64,000 nt of DNA from NCBI GenBank assembly GCA_049287305.1, contig JBAQFO010000012.1, forward strand, positions 7,113 through 71,112, in the 5' to 3' direction. The stretch's first letter is position 1; every line of letters begins with the position of its first letter. The stretch is from Minisyncoccia bacterium. GTDB taxonomy: Bacteria; Patescibacteriota; Minisyncoccia; Phycocordibacterales; UBA9973. The notes beneath the pieces were generated by a model. That model saw only the letters and a list, made by a program, of their open reading frames with translations, was not told where the DNA came from and did no database searches. Shown one piece after another: positions 14,186-58,470 of this stretch. Made by a program: the position numbers and the translations under genes.

Positions 14186-14421
14186 TTGAGTTATATTTCA
14201 CAAAACATCCCCAGTTTCACATGGAACATGTTTCACGTGAAACACTTAACTATATTTTAATGTCTTTTATCAAAATATCCTTATTTTACAATGCGTTTCT
14301 ATAAAAACAGGGGTCTTTTACAGGTTTTCAAAAGTGTCCTTTATAAACATTACCAACAGAGTTATCCACAGTTGTGCATAAAATCCTTATAAAGCTGGAT
14401 TTTTCTAAAGGACATCACTAA

Positions 14422-37242: not shown

Positions 37243-38832
37243 ATGTCCTTTGCAAAAGTATATTCAGCGCAAGTAAATCTTCTCTCGGGGAAAATCGTTA
37301 CTATTGAAGTGGACCTTTCCAAGGGTCTGCACACTTTTAGCCTTGTGGGATTGCCGGATAAGGCCGTGGATGAATCTAAAGACAGAGTAAGCGGAGCGAT
37401 AAAAAATTCCGGATACAAATCTCCGAAAGCCAAGAATCAGAAAATCATAGTTTCTCTTTCTCCCGCGGATTTGAAAAAAGAAGGGCCGTTTTTTGACCTC
37501 GGCATCGCAATTTCTTATTTGAAAGCAGCCGGGGACATAAAATTTGAGGCAGAGAAAAAAATATTCCTCGGAGAGCTGGGGCTGGACGGAACATTGCGGC
37601 GAATCCGCGGAGCGCTGCCGCTGGCGCAGGAGGCCAAGAAAGAAGGCTTTGAAGAAATATATTTACCGAAGGAAAATGCGGAAGAAGCGGCACTGGTGGA
37701 AGGGATAAAAATTTTTGGAGCCGAAAGTTTGGCGGAAGTCGTGGAGCATATAGACGAAACTCCTGCCCGCAATGCTTCTAGCATAGCTAGTGCAGGCGGG
37801 AAAAAACCCGAACAAAAAGAAACAAAGAAAATACACACCCAGCCAAAAACGGAGATTGGATATAAGAAAGAAATAAGCGGGGCCGACTTTTCGGACATTC
37901 GCGGACAAGAAGGCGCCAAAAGGGGCCTTGAAATAGCCGCTGCGGGAGGACACAACATAGCCATGTTCGGACCGCCAGGCACCGGCAAGACCATGCTTGC
38001 CCGAGCATTTTCACAACTACTTCCGGATTTGGCTGTTAATGAAGTGCTGGAACTTACAGGAATTCATTCGGTGGCGGGAAGCACTCAAGGCAATCTGGTG
38101 TGCTTCCCGCCGTTCCGTGCTCCGCATCACACTTCGTCTTATGTTTCTATTATCGGGGGAGGAGCGTATCCGAAACCCGGAGAAGTAACTTTGGCGCATA
38201 GAGGGGTTTTGTTTTTGGACGAATTTCCTGAATTTGAAAAAAGAGTAATTGAATCTTTAAGGCAGCCACTTGAGGATAATATTGTTTCCATATCTCGTGC
38301 TCGGGGGACGGCGGTCTTTCCTTCCAATTTTATACTTGTAGCAGCGATGAACCCCTGTCCTTGTGGGAATGCTGGCAATAAGCAAAAAGCCTGCATTTGC
38401 AAACCTTCTGATTTAGATAGATACAAAAGAAAACTCTCGGGTCCGATTGTGGACCGAATTGACCTCTGGGTTTCAGTAGGCAACGTTGACTACAAGAAGC
38501 TCGGAGAAAAGGGGAACGGAGAGCATAGTGAAAAAATAAAAGAAAGAATAGATAAAGCTCGACAGGTCCAAAGTGAGCGATTTAAAAGATTCGGGAAAAA
38601 AATTACAACTAACAGCGAAATGAGTGTTAAGGATTTGGAAAACATGGTGAAGCTGGATTCAAAAGTTAGAGACCTTTTGGACCAAAGCGCCGAGAGCCTA
38701 AGCTTGTCTGCTCGCGCGTATCATAGAGTTATAAAAATCGCCCGCACCATCGCCGACCTGGAAGGAGCGGAAAACGTGGGCGCCAATCATATATTAGAGG
38801 CTATTCAATACAGGCCGAAAGTGAATTCATAG
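37243..38832 (+). CDS. comM: ComM/YifB-family Mg-chelatase-like ATPase
   Basis: N-terminal Lon-protease-like domain, Walker A GPPGTGKT, and a C-terminal ChlI-like region. Confidence 0.85.
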   Translation: MSFAKVYSAQVNLLSGKIVTIEVDLSKGLHTFSLVGLPDKAVDESKDRVSGAIKNSGYKSPKAKNQKIIVSLSPADLKKEGPFFDLGIAISYLKAAGDIKFEAEKKIFLGELGLDGTLRRIRGALPLAQEAKKEGFEEIYLPKENAEEAALVEGIKIFGAESLAEVVEHIDETPARNASSIASAGGKKPEQKETKKIHTQPKTEIGYKKEISGADFSDIRGQEGAKRGLEIAAAGGHNIAMFGPPGTGKTMLARAFSQLLPDLAVNEVLELTGIHSVAGSTQGNLVCFPPFRAPHHTSSYVSIIGGGAYPKPGEVTLAHRGVLFLDEFPEFEKRVIESLRQPLEDNIVSISRARGTAVFPSNFILVAAMNPCPCGNAGNKQKACICKPSDLDRYKRKLSGPIVDRIDLWVSVGNVDYKKLGEKGNGEHSEKIKERIDKARQVQSERFKRFGKKITTNSEMSVKDLENMVKLDSKVRDLLDQSAESLSLSARAYHRVIKIARTIADLEGAENVGANHILEAIQYRPKVNS

Positions 38833-38851
38833 TTATCCACAGGCAAGTTGT

Positions 38852-38881
38852 TGACAAGTGAACGCTCGTTCACTTATACTA
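38852..38881 (+). promoter_or_regulatory. Sigma70-like promoter with embedded perfect LexA (Cheo-type) box
   Basis: TTGACA-[aGTGAACGCTCGTTCACt]-TATACT. The 18-nt spacer is a perfect palindrome containing GAAC-N4-GTTC. Confidence 0.6.
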
Positions 38882-38929
38882 TTTACATGACCAAGTCGCG
38901 GGTCAAATTAGTAAATTAAAGACAAAGTT

Positions 38930-39130
38930 ATGAGCCAATCACAATATTTAAAGATGCTGGAGAGGGAGATACAGAAGATCAATAAGAAAATTGATTTGAA
39001 GATACTCCAAGGAGAGAATTATCTAAAAGAGGCGAGGGAACACAAGCTTCTCTTAAAGAAGGTTCGCTACCACACGAAGGGGAGCTTGCTTAGCAAATTT
39101 TTTCCTACTTTTACAAAATTTTCTTTCTAA
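38930..39130 (+). CDS. Small Lys-rich helical protein co-transcribed with lexA
   Basis: 66-aa ORF ending 1 nt before the lexA start. Lies downstream of the LexA-box promoter. Confidence 0.5.
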   Translation: MSQSQYLKMLEREIQKINKKIDLKILQGENYLKEAREHKLLLKKVRYHTKGSLLSKFFPTFTKFSF

Positions 39131-39697
39131 ATGAAGAATCTTCACCAGATAAAAATAGAATCTTTCTACGGCGAGAATAAGAGGATGCCGACGTATTCCG
39201 AGATGATGAAGCTCTTCGGCTTCAAGTCCAAGAATGCGGTTTTTAAAGTTGTAGAAAAGCTCCTGGATGCTGGACTAGTAGCTAAGGACCACTTGGGCAG
39301 ACTCGTGCCATCCGAAACATTCGGCGAAGTGCCTATGCTTGGGTTCGTGACTGCTGGGTTCCCAGCAACAGTGGAGGAAGAAATGGCAGATACGGTCAAC
39401 CTGGACGATATGCTTATAAAAAACAAACCGCTTACTTATATGCTGGAGGTTGACGGCGACTCAATGATAGAGGCGCACATAGAAAAAGGGGATATGGTTC
39501 TCGTTGAGAAATGCAACAATGCCAAAGATGGGGATATTGTGATTGCGGAAGTTGACGGAGAATTTACGATGAAATATTTTAAAAAAAGGGGCGACAAAGC
39601 ATGGCTTGAACCAGCGAATAAAAATTATAAGCCTATATATCCGGAGCACTCTTTAAATATAAATGCGGTAGTAAAAGCGGTGATTAGGAAATACTGA
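39131..39697 (+). CDS. lexA: LexA repressor
   Basis: N-terminal wHTH plus the S24 peptidase domain VDGDSMIEAHIEKGDMVLV with catalytic Ser/Lys (TMKYF). Confidence 0.85.
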   Translation: MKNLHQIKIESFYGENKRMPTYSEMMKLFGFKSKNAVFKVVEKLLDAGLVAKDHLGRLVPSETFGEVPMLGFVTAGFPATVEEEMADTVNLDDMLIKNKPLTYMLEVDGDSMIEAHIEKGDMVLVEKCNNAKDGDIVIAEVDGEFTMKYFKKRGDKAWLEPANKNYKPIYPEHSLNINAVVKAVIRKY

Positions 39698-40229
39698 GAG
39701 AATCAAAATTGCCAAACATAAAGTCCAAAATACAGCATATAATATAAAACCCTCCTCCAGCAATAACAGTCCACATCAAAGGTCCAGTTAATTTTCCTGT
39801 AATTAAATTCCAGGCACATATGGTGCTCGTTGTAACTCCGGCAAAAAAATATATAAAATGAATAGCACCTATCCAGCTAATCCTACCCGTAGAGGGGAAA
39901 CCCATGTCTGGTTTATGTTTTACTCGAAGACATATTTTTGCAAAAAGCAGGGTACTTACAGCTCCGATGACGAGTGAATAAATCCACTGATATGCACTTA
40001 CATATCCGCTGACTGTTAAATGAGCAAAACCTATGGCTATGGAGGAAATTCCCAAGATGTCTCCGTAAGTCAGGGTGTAAAAATCCTGCATATAAAGAAA
40101 CTTCTGGCGAGTGTTGGTGATAATAGAACGACGCGGTGGTAAGTTTCTGTCTAATCTCTGAGATATGTACATAGTTCCTATATAAAACAAATTTATTGCT
40201 ACCGCGAAAAACTCCCAAAAAAATTTCAT
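39684..40229 (-). CDS. Hypothetical polytopic membrane protein
   Basis: 181 aa with 5 to 6 TM segments. Confidence 0.5.
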   Translation of the reverse strand: MKFFWEFFAVAINLFYIGTMYISQRLDRNLPPRRSIITNTRQKFLYMQDFYTLTYGDILGISSIAIGFAHLTVSGYVSAYQWIYSLVIGAVSTLLFAKICLRVKHKPDMGFPSTGRISWIGAIHFIYFFAGVTTSTICAWNLITGKLTGPLMWTVIAGGGFYIICCILDFMFGNFDSLSIS

Positions 40230-40269
40230 GGCTAGATTATAGCATTTAAGGCTATTTCTGTAATTAAAT

Positions 40270-40296
40270 AAAAAAGTCCCCAGAAGGGACTTTTTT
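40270..40296. terminator. Bidirectional intrinsic terminator
   Basis: agtccc-cagaa-gggact flanked by an A-run upstream and a T-run downstream. Lies between hup and the convergent membrane-protein gene. Confidence 0.6.
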
Positions 40297-40316
40297 ATTT
40301 AATCTCGAGATTAATA

Positions 40317-40589
40317 TTACGCAACCATATCTTTCAAACCTTTTGCAGGTCGGAATTTTGGCACTTTCTTCGCGGCTACTTTAACTTGCTCTCCAGTCTT
40401 TGGATTGCGAGCCATTCTTGCTGCGCGAGCTTTTACTGAGAAGATTCCGAAGCCAGCTATTGATACTTCCTGTCCTTTCTTTAAGGTTCCAATGATAGCA
40501 TCAAACATTCCGTCTACGAGTTCTTCAGCTTGAACCTTCGTTCCTCCTAATTTTCCGTGGACCCATTCAGCTAATGCTTGTTTATTCAT
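40317..40589 (-). CDS. hup: DNA-binding protein HU
   Basis: 90 aa with the characteristic GFGIFSVKARAARMARNPKTGE arm. Confidence 0.9.
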   Translation of the reverse strand: MNKQALAEWVHGKLGGTKVQAEELVDGMFDAIIGTLKKGQEVSIAGFGIFSVKARAARMARNPKTGEQVKVAAKKVPKFRPAKGLKDMVA

Positions 40590-40720
40590 ATTGTTTTAAA
40601 TTATTTTTATAATTCTTTCGACCGGACCCCCTAAACGGGAGCTGTTTTAACCTTATAATTACTCTCTATACATTATATATCAAGGGTTTTTTTAGGCAAG
40701 GGAACGATAAATTTTGTAAA

Positions 40721-40820
40721 ATACCTACTTTTTTCGGGTACGGATTTTTTGAAGATTAAAAAATCCTGAAATTTGCTCGCCGTCGCTCGCAAAACCCCCT
40801 TCAAAAGTAGTATTTTAAGA
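40721..40820 (+). repeat. IR-enclosed conserved core element, copy 2
   Basis: aaaatacctactttt ... aaaagtagtatttt encloses the core tacgGATTTTTTGAAGaTTAAAAAATCCTGAAaTT..GCTCGCCGTCGCTCGCAAAACCCCC, which is about 80% identical to the core at 28517-28573. Confidence 0.45.
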
Positions 40821-44626: not shown

Positions 44627-45665
44627 TCCAAAATTAATTTTTAAAGACGGGACTATTTTTGAAGGTAAAAGCTTCGGAGCTCCGCAGTCAGTCGCGGGAG
44701 AAGTTGTTTTTGCCACCGGGATGGTGGGATATCCGGAAGCGCTAACCGATCCCTCTTTCCGCGGGCAGATACTAGTAATGACATATCCCTTAATTGGGAA
44801 CTACGGTGTGCCGAAAAAAGAATTATTAGAGTCGGGGGAAATTCAAGTTGCGGGACTGATAGTTTGCAATTATGTAAATACTCCATCGCACCACGCAAAT
44901 GAAATTACTCTGGCGGAATGGTTTAAGCAAGAAGACGTTCCGTTAATTGAAATTAAAGATACCCGGGCGCTCACGGAAAAATTGCGAGATGAAGGCGCAT
45001 CCTTGGGGAAAATAATCATCGGTGGAAAGAACGTAGCCTTTGAAGACCCAAATAAAAGAAATCTGGCGGGAGAGGTGAGCGTCAAAGAAGTTGTTTCTTT
45101 TGGCAAAGGTAAAGAAACCATCGTTCTCATAGATTGTGGAGCGAAGAGAAACATTGTCCGGAGTCTGGTGGCACGCGGGCTTCATGTTGTCGTTGTTCCA
45201 TGGAACACCGATGTTACGAAACTAGACTTTTCTTTTAGCGGAGTTGTTATTTCCAATGGTCCTGGAGACCCGAAAAAAGTTGAAGCTACTATCAAGAATG
45301 TGAAAAAAATTATAAATAAAAAAATTCCGACACTGGGAATTTGTTTGGGAAACCAAATTTTGACTCTTGCGCTGGGTGGAACAACTTACAAAATGAAATT
45401 CGGGCATAGGAGCCAGAATCAGCCGGTGGTGGAAGCGGGGACGAATAAGTGTTATTTAACAACACAAAATCATGGTTTTGCAGTTAAACAGACCCCGAAA
45501 GATTTTGTGGAATGGTTCCACAATGCCAATGACAATACGAATGAAGGGATTATCCACAAGTCACTTCCTTTCATGTCGGTGCAGTTTCATCCCGAGAGTT
45601 CCCCGGGGCCGCTGGATACGGATTGGATTTTTGATTACTTCCTAAAGAAAACAAAAATAAAATGA
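44613..45665 (+). CDS. carA: Carbamoyl-phosphate synthase small subunit
   Basis: Glutamine amidotransferase motifs GICLGNQIL and HPES. Confidence 0.9.
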   Translation: MKSNNPKLIFKDGTIFEGKSFGAPQSVAGEVVFATGMVGYPEALTDPSFRGQILVMTYPLIGNYGVPKKELLESGEIQVAGLIVCNYVNTPSHHANEITLAEWFKQEDVPLIEIKDTRALTEKLRDEGASLGKIIIGGKNVAFEDPNKRNLAGEVSVKEVVSFGKGKETIVLIDCGAKRNIVRSLVARGLHVVVVPWNTDVTKLDFSFSGVVISNGPGDPKKVEATIKNVKKIINKKIPTLGICLGNQILTLALGGTTYKMKFGHRSQNQPVVEAGTNKCYLTTQNHGFAVKQTPKDFVEWFHNANDNTNEGIIHKSLPFMSVQFHPESSPGPLDTDWIFDYFLKKTKIK

Positions 45666-54282: not shown

Positions 54283-54445
54283 ATTGGCGCGACGCTCTTT
54301 TATTAAGTTTTTAAAAATAAAAGCCCTGTTCTGGCAGGACTTATACGAGAAAAGTATATCACATTACTACTTTAGAGGCAAGGCTTGAAAAGTTCCTCCA
54401 TTTATCCACAGGCCTAATGATTGTTTTTACTATTGTGTTATAATT

Positions 54446-58246: not shown

Positions 58247-58470
58247 AAGGATATTAAAGTTATCCACAGCAAAAAACTCGCAATTGCCTTTGCGGGTTTT
58301 TTGTGGTATACTACTAAAGACTATCATAGTTCGCGTTCGCTGTTCCTTGATTTGACTTCTGTCGCATAGTTTTTTGTGCGATGACTATTTACGTGTCGGC
58401 ATAGCTCTCTGTTCGCAAATTCACCTAACTACCCACTTCTTCGAAAGAGTGGTTTGAGGAGGAGGCTGTC

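Follow-up and report, generated by a model that had tools for sequence, protein, structure and literature searches.

Two genes read in the same direction lie side by side in a stretch of 64,000 nucleotides (nt) from a Minisyncoccia bacterium (contig JBAQFO010000012.1 of GenBank assembly GCA_049287305.1, positions 7,113 to 71,112 of the forward strand), called here the window, all coordinates being counted from its first letter. The first gene is a small open reading frame (ORF) of 66 codons, the second is lexA, and both stand behind one promoter, the spacer of which holds a predicted operator for LexA (Table 1). Just upstream of this promoter lies a nonamer, TTATCCACA, that reads as a DnaA box. 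To be sure, the LexA box and the autoregulation of lexA are already known biology. The new part is the partner gene, which belongs to a previously unannotated family, and, alongside it, the DnaA-like box, which the author of an earlier note on this DNA, made from its letters, had missed.

The product of the small ORF has an identical counterpart (100%), a hypothetical protein from a metagenome-assembled genome of Minisyncoccia, and its relatives carry the labels Nomurabacteria, Paceibacterota or Patescibacteria; the host is a Nomurabacteria-like, ultra-small and uncultivated bacterium of the Patescibacteria, class Minisyncoccia. The main comparison set consists of 80 related genomic loci, fetched with the alignment of the small ORF, while a second, independent sample of metagenome loci was fetched with the alignment of LexA.

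A small protein encoded next to LexA

By its alignments the 188-residue product of the second gene is a genuine LexA, in agreement with the earlier note. It reaches 125.4 bits against the LexA equivalog model TIGR00498 of NCBIfam (curated cutoff 110.95 bits), with residues 10-187 covered, and alignment to the LexA structures of Escherichia coli and Thermotoga puts Ala75-Gly76, Ser111 and Lys148 at the cleavage and catalytic positions (A84-G85, S119 and K156 in the E. coli protein). In the N-terminal domain, the Pfam LexA_DNA_bind model gives only E=0.021, below cutoff, and residues 17-60 align to the N-terminal domains of the E. coli and Thermotoga proteins. The cleavage and catalytic residues, together with K32, S33 and N35 of the recognition helix, do not vary among clade LexAs as distant as 51% identity.

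The gene that precedes lexA has a large family. Homologue searches return 469 sequences at E<=0.01, and an exhaustive search with a hidden Markov model (HMM) collects 266 clusters at 50% identity, nearly all of them 60-70 residues long; a further word-index search, made with the diverse alignment, mainly brought back close relatives already collected. Conservation of the small ORF as a coding frame in relatives was one of the checks on which the earlier note had staked its proposal, and it came out clearly: in the 80 sequences used for the analysis of coding selection (the window and 79 relatives) the frame is intact in every case, lexA stands next to it, and the proportions of nonsynonymous and synonymous differences (pN 0.12, pS 0.82; dN/dS ~0.08) indicate strong purifying selection. 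Across the wide family M1, N18, I21, D22, G28, Y31 and H38 are invariant, and the net charge stays between +5 and +12 throughout. Supplied with the alignment, AlphaFold2 predicts with confidence a hairpin of two helices (3-27 and 32-57; predicted local distance difference test, pLDDT, 84) that ends in a C-terminal tail of low confidence. The final 14 residues of the protein form an aromatic stretch of moderate amphipathicity (mean hydrophobic moment 0.39, with 28/32 above the shuffle mean).

For this protein, Pfam, NCBIfam, PHROGs, a sequence-profile search of the PDB and Foldseek against PDB and BFVD give no significant match, the sole structural resemblances being generic helical hairpins, themselves non-significant. 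The earlier note had described a protein devoid of LysM domain and of transmembrane segment, rightly: the maximum of the 19-residue Kyte-Doolittle mean is 0.08, and neither the window protein nor 32 family members match a Pfam family, LysM and SulA domains included. The family carries no annotation, and we found no open literature linking LexA with small ORFs of the candidate phyla radiation, in a search outside of which fell the 2017 paper on the SOS response of Patescibacteria. The latter, by Sanchez-Osuna, Barbe and Erill (Environ Microbiol 2017, 19:3465), reportedly describes the SOS network of this group; it is cited in PMC8565304, and nothing specific on this point is said by the papers that cite it.

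Linkage with lexA is the most telling property of the family. In the window the TAA of the small ORF directly abuts the ATG of lexA, with a gap of 0 nt and in the same frame, so that its place as first gene directly before lexA, already read in the earlier note, is borne out. Of 96 operons, 37 have a stop-to-start gap of -8 nt, 10 one of 0 and 18 one of 1-5; with overlapping or near-zero gaps in most operons, the two genes are as a rule translationally coupled. The full range of the gap, -40 to +124 nt, led us to reject a fusion of the two products by readthrough of the stop codon. No recognisable Shine-Dalgarno sequence precedes either the small ORF or lexA, both upstream regions being AT-rich. 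All 80 genomes have lexA directly after the small ORF. Further away, among eight distant family members (35-45% identity), the immediate neighbour is an S24/LexA gene in seven, where all other neighbours differ, and in the eighth (P0253) the next gene is cut off at the contig end. There are also loci (L081, L091, L107, L115, L118 and L119) where the order is reversed, lexA coming first.

Starting from LexA rather than from its neighbour, a survey based on an HMM scan of six-frame ORFs around lexA loci finds the small ORF beside lexA in 25 of the 26 evaluable loci where LexA is at least 54% identical to that of the window (downstream of lexA in four of them), and in just one of ~45 loci where identity falls below 54%. 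This sharp boundary in LexA identity marks the small-ORF family as the clade-specific partner of one LexA lineage. The small ORF almost certainly codes for a functional protein coupled to lexA.

Promoter, predicted LexA operator and DnaA-box-like element

Control elements are packed in the order TAG-TTATCCACA-GGCAAGTTG-TTGACA-AGTGAACGCTCGTTCACT-TATACT. The promoter that the earlier note had placed ahead of the two genes (TTGACA, an 18-nt spacer, TATACT) is confirmed: it agrees with the consensus at 11 of 12 positions and is the top-scoring promoter-like site within 38000-40800. The spacer AGTGAACGCTCGTTCACT, presented there as a perfect palindrome, is not one: it is an 8+8 inverted repeat, two perfect 8-nt arms flanking a non-self-complementary CT, and its reverse strand matches with 2 mismatches. 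The designation as a Cheo-type SOS box holds for the GAAC-N4-GTTC core and fails for the flanks CGAAC...GTTCG. The extended Cheo consensus is CGAACRNRYGTTYC, from which the box of the window, TGAACGCTCGTTCA, departs by T/A for the flanking C/C and by one spacer position; the core, the position that would block the promoter and the conservation in orthologous promoters are all as in a Cheo box, the extended consensus is not.

Counting motifs tells little here. GAAC-N4-GTTC (GAACNNNNGTTC) is not enriched in the window (2 observed, 1.18 expected), and by simple arithmetic 64 kb should contain about one inverted repeat of 8+8 nt separated by a 2-nt centre. The operator gains its significance from its position and conservation, not from motif count. 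GAAC-N4-GTTC lies between -35 and -10 in 80/80 evaluable related loci, for which the clade consensus reads GTTATCCACAG-N8-10-TTGACA-(A/G)-GTGAACG-NN-CGTTCAC-(T/C)-TATACT, with a promoter spacer of 17 nt at 48 loci and 18 nt at 31. The operator arms are unchanged across these relatives, variation being confined to the central dinucleotide (CT 43, AG 32, others 5), and no compensatory arm substitution was found among them, which points to a site for a protein rather than to an RNA hairpin. Since the synonymous sites of the adjacent small ORF are saturated (pS as given above), this invariance reflects selection. The operator stays within the promoter even where comM, the upstream neighbour in the window, lies 1-2 kb off, is replaced or is absent, and neither the rest of the window nor ~500 kb of related loci contain a second extended box GTGAACG-NN-CGTTCAC. 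The independent LexA sample extends the picture: the same layout, TTGACA-N-GAACN4GTTC-N-TATAAT, is common before lexA homologues down to ~36% identity, so the design of the operator is widespread and ordinary. With the operator inside the core promoter, conserved in relatives and before distant lexA genes, autoregulation by promoter occlusion is the straightforward reading, the autoregulation itself having been proposed in the earlier note. What can be read from the DNA thus describes, very probably, a real operon subject to autoregulation by LexA.

Autoregulated lexA (dinR) promoters with Cheo/SOS boxes are familiar from Bacillus, Actinobacteria and other lineages. They share with the present locus a GAAC-N4-GTTC placed over the lexA promoter and a repressor made of a winged helix-turn-helix and an S24 autoprotease; here, in contrast, the flanks are TGAACG...CGTTCA instead of CGAAC...GTTCG, lexA is the second gene, and -35 is preceded, at 8-10 nt, by a fixed DnaA-box-like element.

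Some variants of the operator deserve mention. The other GAAC-N4-GTTC of the window (TTGAACCTTCGTTCCT, 40530-40545, with its core at 40532) sits inside the HU coding sequence and recurs at the same place in the HU gene of a relative (L054:5946), without GTGAAC/GTTCAC flanks; it is probably not an operator, its conservation being explained by that of the coding sequence. At L082:432-447 a second GAAC-N4-GTTC-like site (GGAACCGTCGTTCT) is found within a gap of 122 nt between the small ORF and lexA, while L087:2400-2500 keeps TTATCCACA and has its LexA box reduced to a degenerate GTGTACGAACGTATAC. Tandem boxes precede several distant lexA genes (operator variants were noted in L161, L162 and L170), and GTAC half-sites replace GAAC in L125, L135 and L169.

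With respect to the inferred transcription start, the DnaA-box-like TTATCCACA covers about -53 to -45 and is centred near -49. It recurs 8-10 nt upstream of -35 in 78/80 relatives, amid a linker and an upstream flank that are variable. In 443 kb of related loci 74 of the 77 copies of TTATCCACA sit at the promoter of the lexA operon, and in the independent metagenome sample 20 of the 26 copies of the consensus TTATNCACA lie at most 40 nt upstream of the lexA operator; these 20 all come from the small-ORF clade, two of them in inverted orientation (L110 and L131). Variants in relatives include TTATACACA and TTTTCCACA, the former, from a distant relative, still within the consensus. Within the window TTATCCACA is found 5 times for 0.45 expected, a count that 0/100 shuffles reach, and 4 of these 5 copies are intergenic and have G as the next base. 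Because of these further, mostly intergenic copies, the factor that binds TTATCCACA probably has a wider regulon.

Which factor this might be is suggested by the consensus match and by conservation as a separate module, independently of orientation. DnaA is the parsimonious candidate binder, and we would give even chances to its being the right one. Promoters controlled by DnaA boxes are known for nrdAB, dnaA and uvrB (P3) in E. coli and for sda in Bacillus subtilis; the product of sda is itself a small helical-hairpin checkpoint protein, and uvrB combines LexA and DnaA sites. As in these cases, the lexA operon has a consensus TTATCCACA near the core promoter of a gene linked to stress and replication; unlike them, the nonamer here is also present at three other intergenic sites of the window, and binding is predicted from sequence. 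A literature search brought up no open paper in which a conserved DnaA box is described for a lexA promoter.

The remaining copies of TTATCCACA in the window have diverse surroundings. The one at 14362 faces TTATGCACA head to head across two bases; it has a UPF0102 gene on one side and a tRNA cluster on the other, and coincides with the minimum of cumulative GC skew in the window. A replication origin at ~14 kb was considered for this skew minimum and inverted box pair; it was set aside: there are two boxes only, and the flanking genes are those for a CCA-adding enzyme, UPF0102 and tRNAs. The copy at 54402 lies 44 nt upstream of the gene of a 1266-aa CARDB protein, divergent from nusA; that at 58260 comes just past the CARDB protein gene, before an extended -10 (TGGTATACT), and that at 45550 falls within a coding region.

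Table 1. Features of the lexA operon, its surroundings and comparable loci (window coordinates unless a locus is named)
Feature	Position	Strand	Evidence or remark
comM/yifB Mg-chelatase-like gene	37243-38832		upstream of operon
DnaA-box-like TTATCCACA	38833-38841	+	exact match to DnaA-box consensus TTATNCACA; 9 nt upstream of -35
-35 hexamer TTGACA	38851-38856	+	promoter scan; invariant in relatives
Predicted LexA operator A-GTGAACG-CT-CGTTCAC-T = spacer AGTGAACGCTCGTTCACT, 18 nt	38857-38874	+	sequence read; motif and palindrome checks
GAAC-N4-GTTC core GAACGCTCGTTC	38860-38871	+	motif match
-10 hexamer TATACT	38875-38880	+	promoter scan; conserved in relatives
AT-rich leader without Shine-Dalgarno	38881-38929	+	sequence read; transcription start inferred
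Small 5' hairpin TGACC-AAGTCGCG-GGTCA, loop motif AGTCG semi-conserved	~38888-38905	+	leader comparison
Small ORF, first gene; 66 aa, 8.0 kDa, isoelectric point (pI) 10.05, helical-hairpin protein	38930-39130	+	homologue searches, dN/dS, AlphaFold2
lexA, 188 aa	39131-39697	+	TIGR00498 above cutoff; Peptidase_S24 E=3.8e-29
181-aa multi-pass membrane protein gene, no Pfam family	39684-40229	-	convergent with lexA
Further exact TTATCCACA copies	14362-14381, 45550-45558, 54402-54410, 58260-58268	all +	window scan
Small ORFs after lexA in another clade	L132:2112-2363, L136:2081-2230, L137:2065-2313, L141:1003-1275		

Possible roles of the small protein

Overall, we favour with moderate confidence the view that the locus is an autoregulated SOS master operon that includes a small accessory protein for LexA/RecA. 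A LexA dimer bound to GTGAACG-NN-CGTTCAC in the 17/18-nt spacer of a near-consensus sigma-70 promoter would occlude RNA polymerase; upon DNA damage RecA would stimulate self-cleavage of LexA at Ala75-Gly76, as expected from what is known of the family, and the promoter would be freed. One transcript would then carry two translationally coupled genes, for the basic hairpin protein and then for LexA. The small protein might bind LexA or RecA*, tuning operator binding or self-cleavage, and the DnaA-box-like TTATCCACA probably adds an input from the replication initiator.

That the small protein is an accessory or co-regulator of the LexA/RecA switch, in preference to a division inhibitor, is proposed tentatively, on analogy with other systems. 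As a consequence of translational coupling it should be made whenever LexA is made, basally too. Basal expression should be needed to maintain the LexA pool, so that a coupled first gene would be made in unstressed cells, which suits a partner better than a growth inhibitor. A partner role is also favoured because the linkage survives inversion of gene order, and because the rate of evolution of the small protein equals that of LexA (p-distance 0.19 for the former, 0.20 for the latter). Strict co-location and co-regulation with an S24 repressor gene across the clade, as found here for the small ORF, are what is expected of a co-factor.

Two systems offer a comparison. In Acinetobacter, DdrR (78-81 aa) is always encoded beside umuDAb and behaves genetically as a co-repressor (PMC7273328). 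It is, like the protein studied here, a clade-restricted protein of no known family located beside an S24 repressor and co-regulated by its operator, but ddrR is divergently transcribed, whereas the small ORF is co-transcribed and translationally coupled, and the repressor of the present operon is a canonical LexA, not UmuDAb; DdrR is likened by description, and homology is not expected. The protein gp7 of phage GIL01 binds LexA, enhances its binding to operators and inhibits its RecA-mediated self-cleavage (PMC4551915). This is a mechanism of the kind proposed here; however, gp7 is phage-encoded and acts on the LexA of the host, whereas the present family is chromosomal and vertically inherited, and no phage protein matched the small protein in the PHROGs scan or in the viral fold search (BFVD). 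The resemblance with gp7 and DdrR is one of functional analogy, not of membership.

Several observations weigh against this partnership. One locus (L109) keeps the promoter and has no adjacent small ORF, so that LexA must be able to function without the small protein. The mirror-tree comparison yields a weak signal: the distance correlation between the small protein and LexA, controlling for RNase Y, gives a partial r of 0.215, against -0.118 for the small ORF with HU, and it is confounded by the physical linkage of the two genes. A fusion of the small protein with LexA, modelled by AlphaFold2 from single sequence, came out at pLDDT 42 and is uninformative, and searches of PDB, PHROGs and Foldseek PDB/BFVD show no sequence or fold similarity of the small protein to known modulators of LexA or RecA. 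Finally, a basic hairpin followed by an amphipathic tail would suit an effector too, one that is peripheral to the membrane or binds nucleic acids.

YneA, SosA, ChiZ/Rv2719c and DivS are non-homologous SOS division inhibitors, typically located beside lexA in Gram-positive bacteria, and SulA and SidA are further SOS division inhibitors; those of the YneA/SosA/ChiZ/DivS type are divergently transcribed, fast-evolving and equipped with a transmembrane segment, LysM or both (or else with the SulA fold). The earlier note had put forward an SOS effector, for example a division inhibitor. The small protein might indeed be a damage-induced inhibitor of division or replication, docking on the membrane or on a conserved target such as FtsZ/FtsA via its aromatic tail, a role that we consider a serious though less likely possibility. 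It is, as these inhibitors are, small, lineage-specific, encoded beside lexA and predicted to be under control of the LexA operator; its C-terminal 14 residues are reminiscent of the amphipathic membrane-targeting helices of the MinD/FtsA type, and small membrane proteins linked to lexA do recur, a transmembrane ORF following lexA in another clade. Yet it has no transmembrane segment, LysM or SulA domain, translational coupling with LexA implies its synthesis in unstressed cells, its conservation (dN/dS ~0.08) is far above that usual for SOS division inhibitors, and the transmembrane-type ORFs of the other clade are not homologous to its family.

A protein with pI 10 and a net charge of +5 to +12 across its family could also be a nucleic-acid binder, coating or protecting damaged DNA, or binding its own leader hairpin, with linkage to lexA a matter of mere co-regulation. 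The helical-hairpin fold would be in line with this, as would the AGTCG motif conserved in the hairpin loop of the leader in many relatives. We think it improbable, however: the protein has no similarity to known DNA- or RNA-binding folds, the invariant N18, D22, G28, Y31 and H38 are not basic, and co-regulation alone leaves unexplained a linkage that persists through reversal of gene order. Next, there is very little chance that the palindrome is an intrinsic terminator of comM/yifB or the operator of another regulator. A scan does flag 38856-38875 as an 8-pair stem-loop, and the window shows no excess of GAAC-N4-GTTC; yet the T-tract (ATACTATTTA) is a poor one, no compensatory changes occur in the invariant arms, the element is found between -35 and -10 in every case, also with comM 1-2 kb off or absent, the same core precedes lexA in very distant lineages and the recognition-helix residues of LexA are invariant. 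Just as hard to credit is a pure upstream ORF, the translation of which, not its product, would control translation of lexA: in most operons the small ORF runs up to the start of lexA or into it, and lexA has no preceding Shine-Dalgarno sequence, but strong purifying selection on the amino-acid sequence and residues invariant across 266 clusters speak against it, and a confident hairpin fold and the lexA-first order of some lineages are incompatible with the role of a mere leader.

Returning to the favoured accessory role, a more ambitious picture would be that of a three-component SOS switch in a large clade of Patescibacteria, where LexA, an obligate co-translated partner of 8 kDa and a DnaA read-out via TTATCCACA couple the damage response to replication initiation; this we regard as doubtful. 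The matter is of some consequence, as the family is kept beside lexA throughout a major group of bacteria that are uncultivated, genome-reduced and left with very few regulators. Should the small protein prove to be a co-factor of LexA/RecA, no earlier case would be known of an accessory subunit of the canonical SOS repressor that is both chromosomal and widespread; should it prove an effector, it would supply the SOS checkpoint protein so far missing from these organisms. Being small and soluble, it lends itself to easy heterologous testing, and the DnaA-box-like module makes a testable link between the control of replication and the SOS response.

Other lexA clades, neighbouring genes and leader

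Another small ORF follows lexA in a LexA clade distinct from that of the window (47-48% identical to the window protein, promoter cttgacaataGAACnnnCGTTCtatata). It displays a (T/S)DW..(K/R).L....W motif and a C-terminal transmembrane helix (19-residue Kyte-Doolittle mean 1.65-2.46). Homology between this ORF and the small-ORF family was tried and rejected (hhalign probability 0.7%); it looks like a separate instance of a small protein that shares its transcript with lexA, and may be an SOS effector of the membrane.

Around the operon of the window, signature motifs of recA, uvrA, dinB, dnaA and ftsZ were looked for, and none is present in the window. Downstream and convergent comes the gene of the 181-aa membrane protein, then those of HU and RNase Y. 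The 3' end of lexA overlaps that of the convergent gene by 14 nt (39684-39697), and there is no terminator-like site between the two.

The leader is the most variable part of the operon, its length ranging from 33 to 162 nt in relatives. A GTCG motif is found 6-30 nt past the -10 in ~55/80 close relatives, often in the loop of a 5-bp hairpin, and is absent from distant relatives. The stem covaries (GACC/GGTC, AGCC/GGCT, GGTC/GACC), with 9 double-sided changes compared with 3.5 in shuffles, a modest excess obtained on a hand-picked subset. Such a hairpin could be a 5' stabiliser or present a protein-binding loop. Leaders also host recurring palindromic inserts, such as CCCCTACCCAGCCTCCCCCTA..TAGGGGGAGG..GGAGGGGGTA and CGTCGCG..CGCGACG..GATTCTGCAGAATC, located ~20-80 nt after the -10 in L023, L029, L036, L046, L058, L066, L075 and L078, with further cases in L006, L010, L013, L017, L026, L044 and L061. 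These inserts resemble miniature repeat insertions and lengthen the leader from 33 to >140 nt, leaving promoter and ORF undisturbed.

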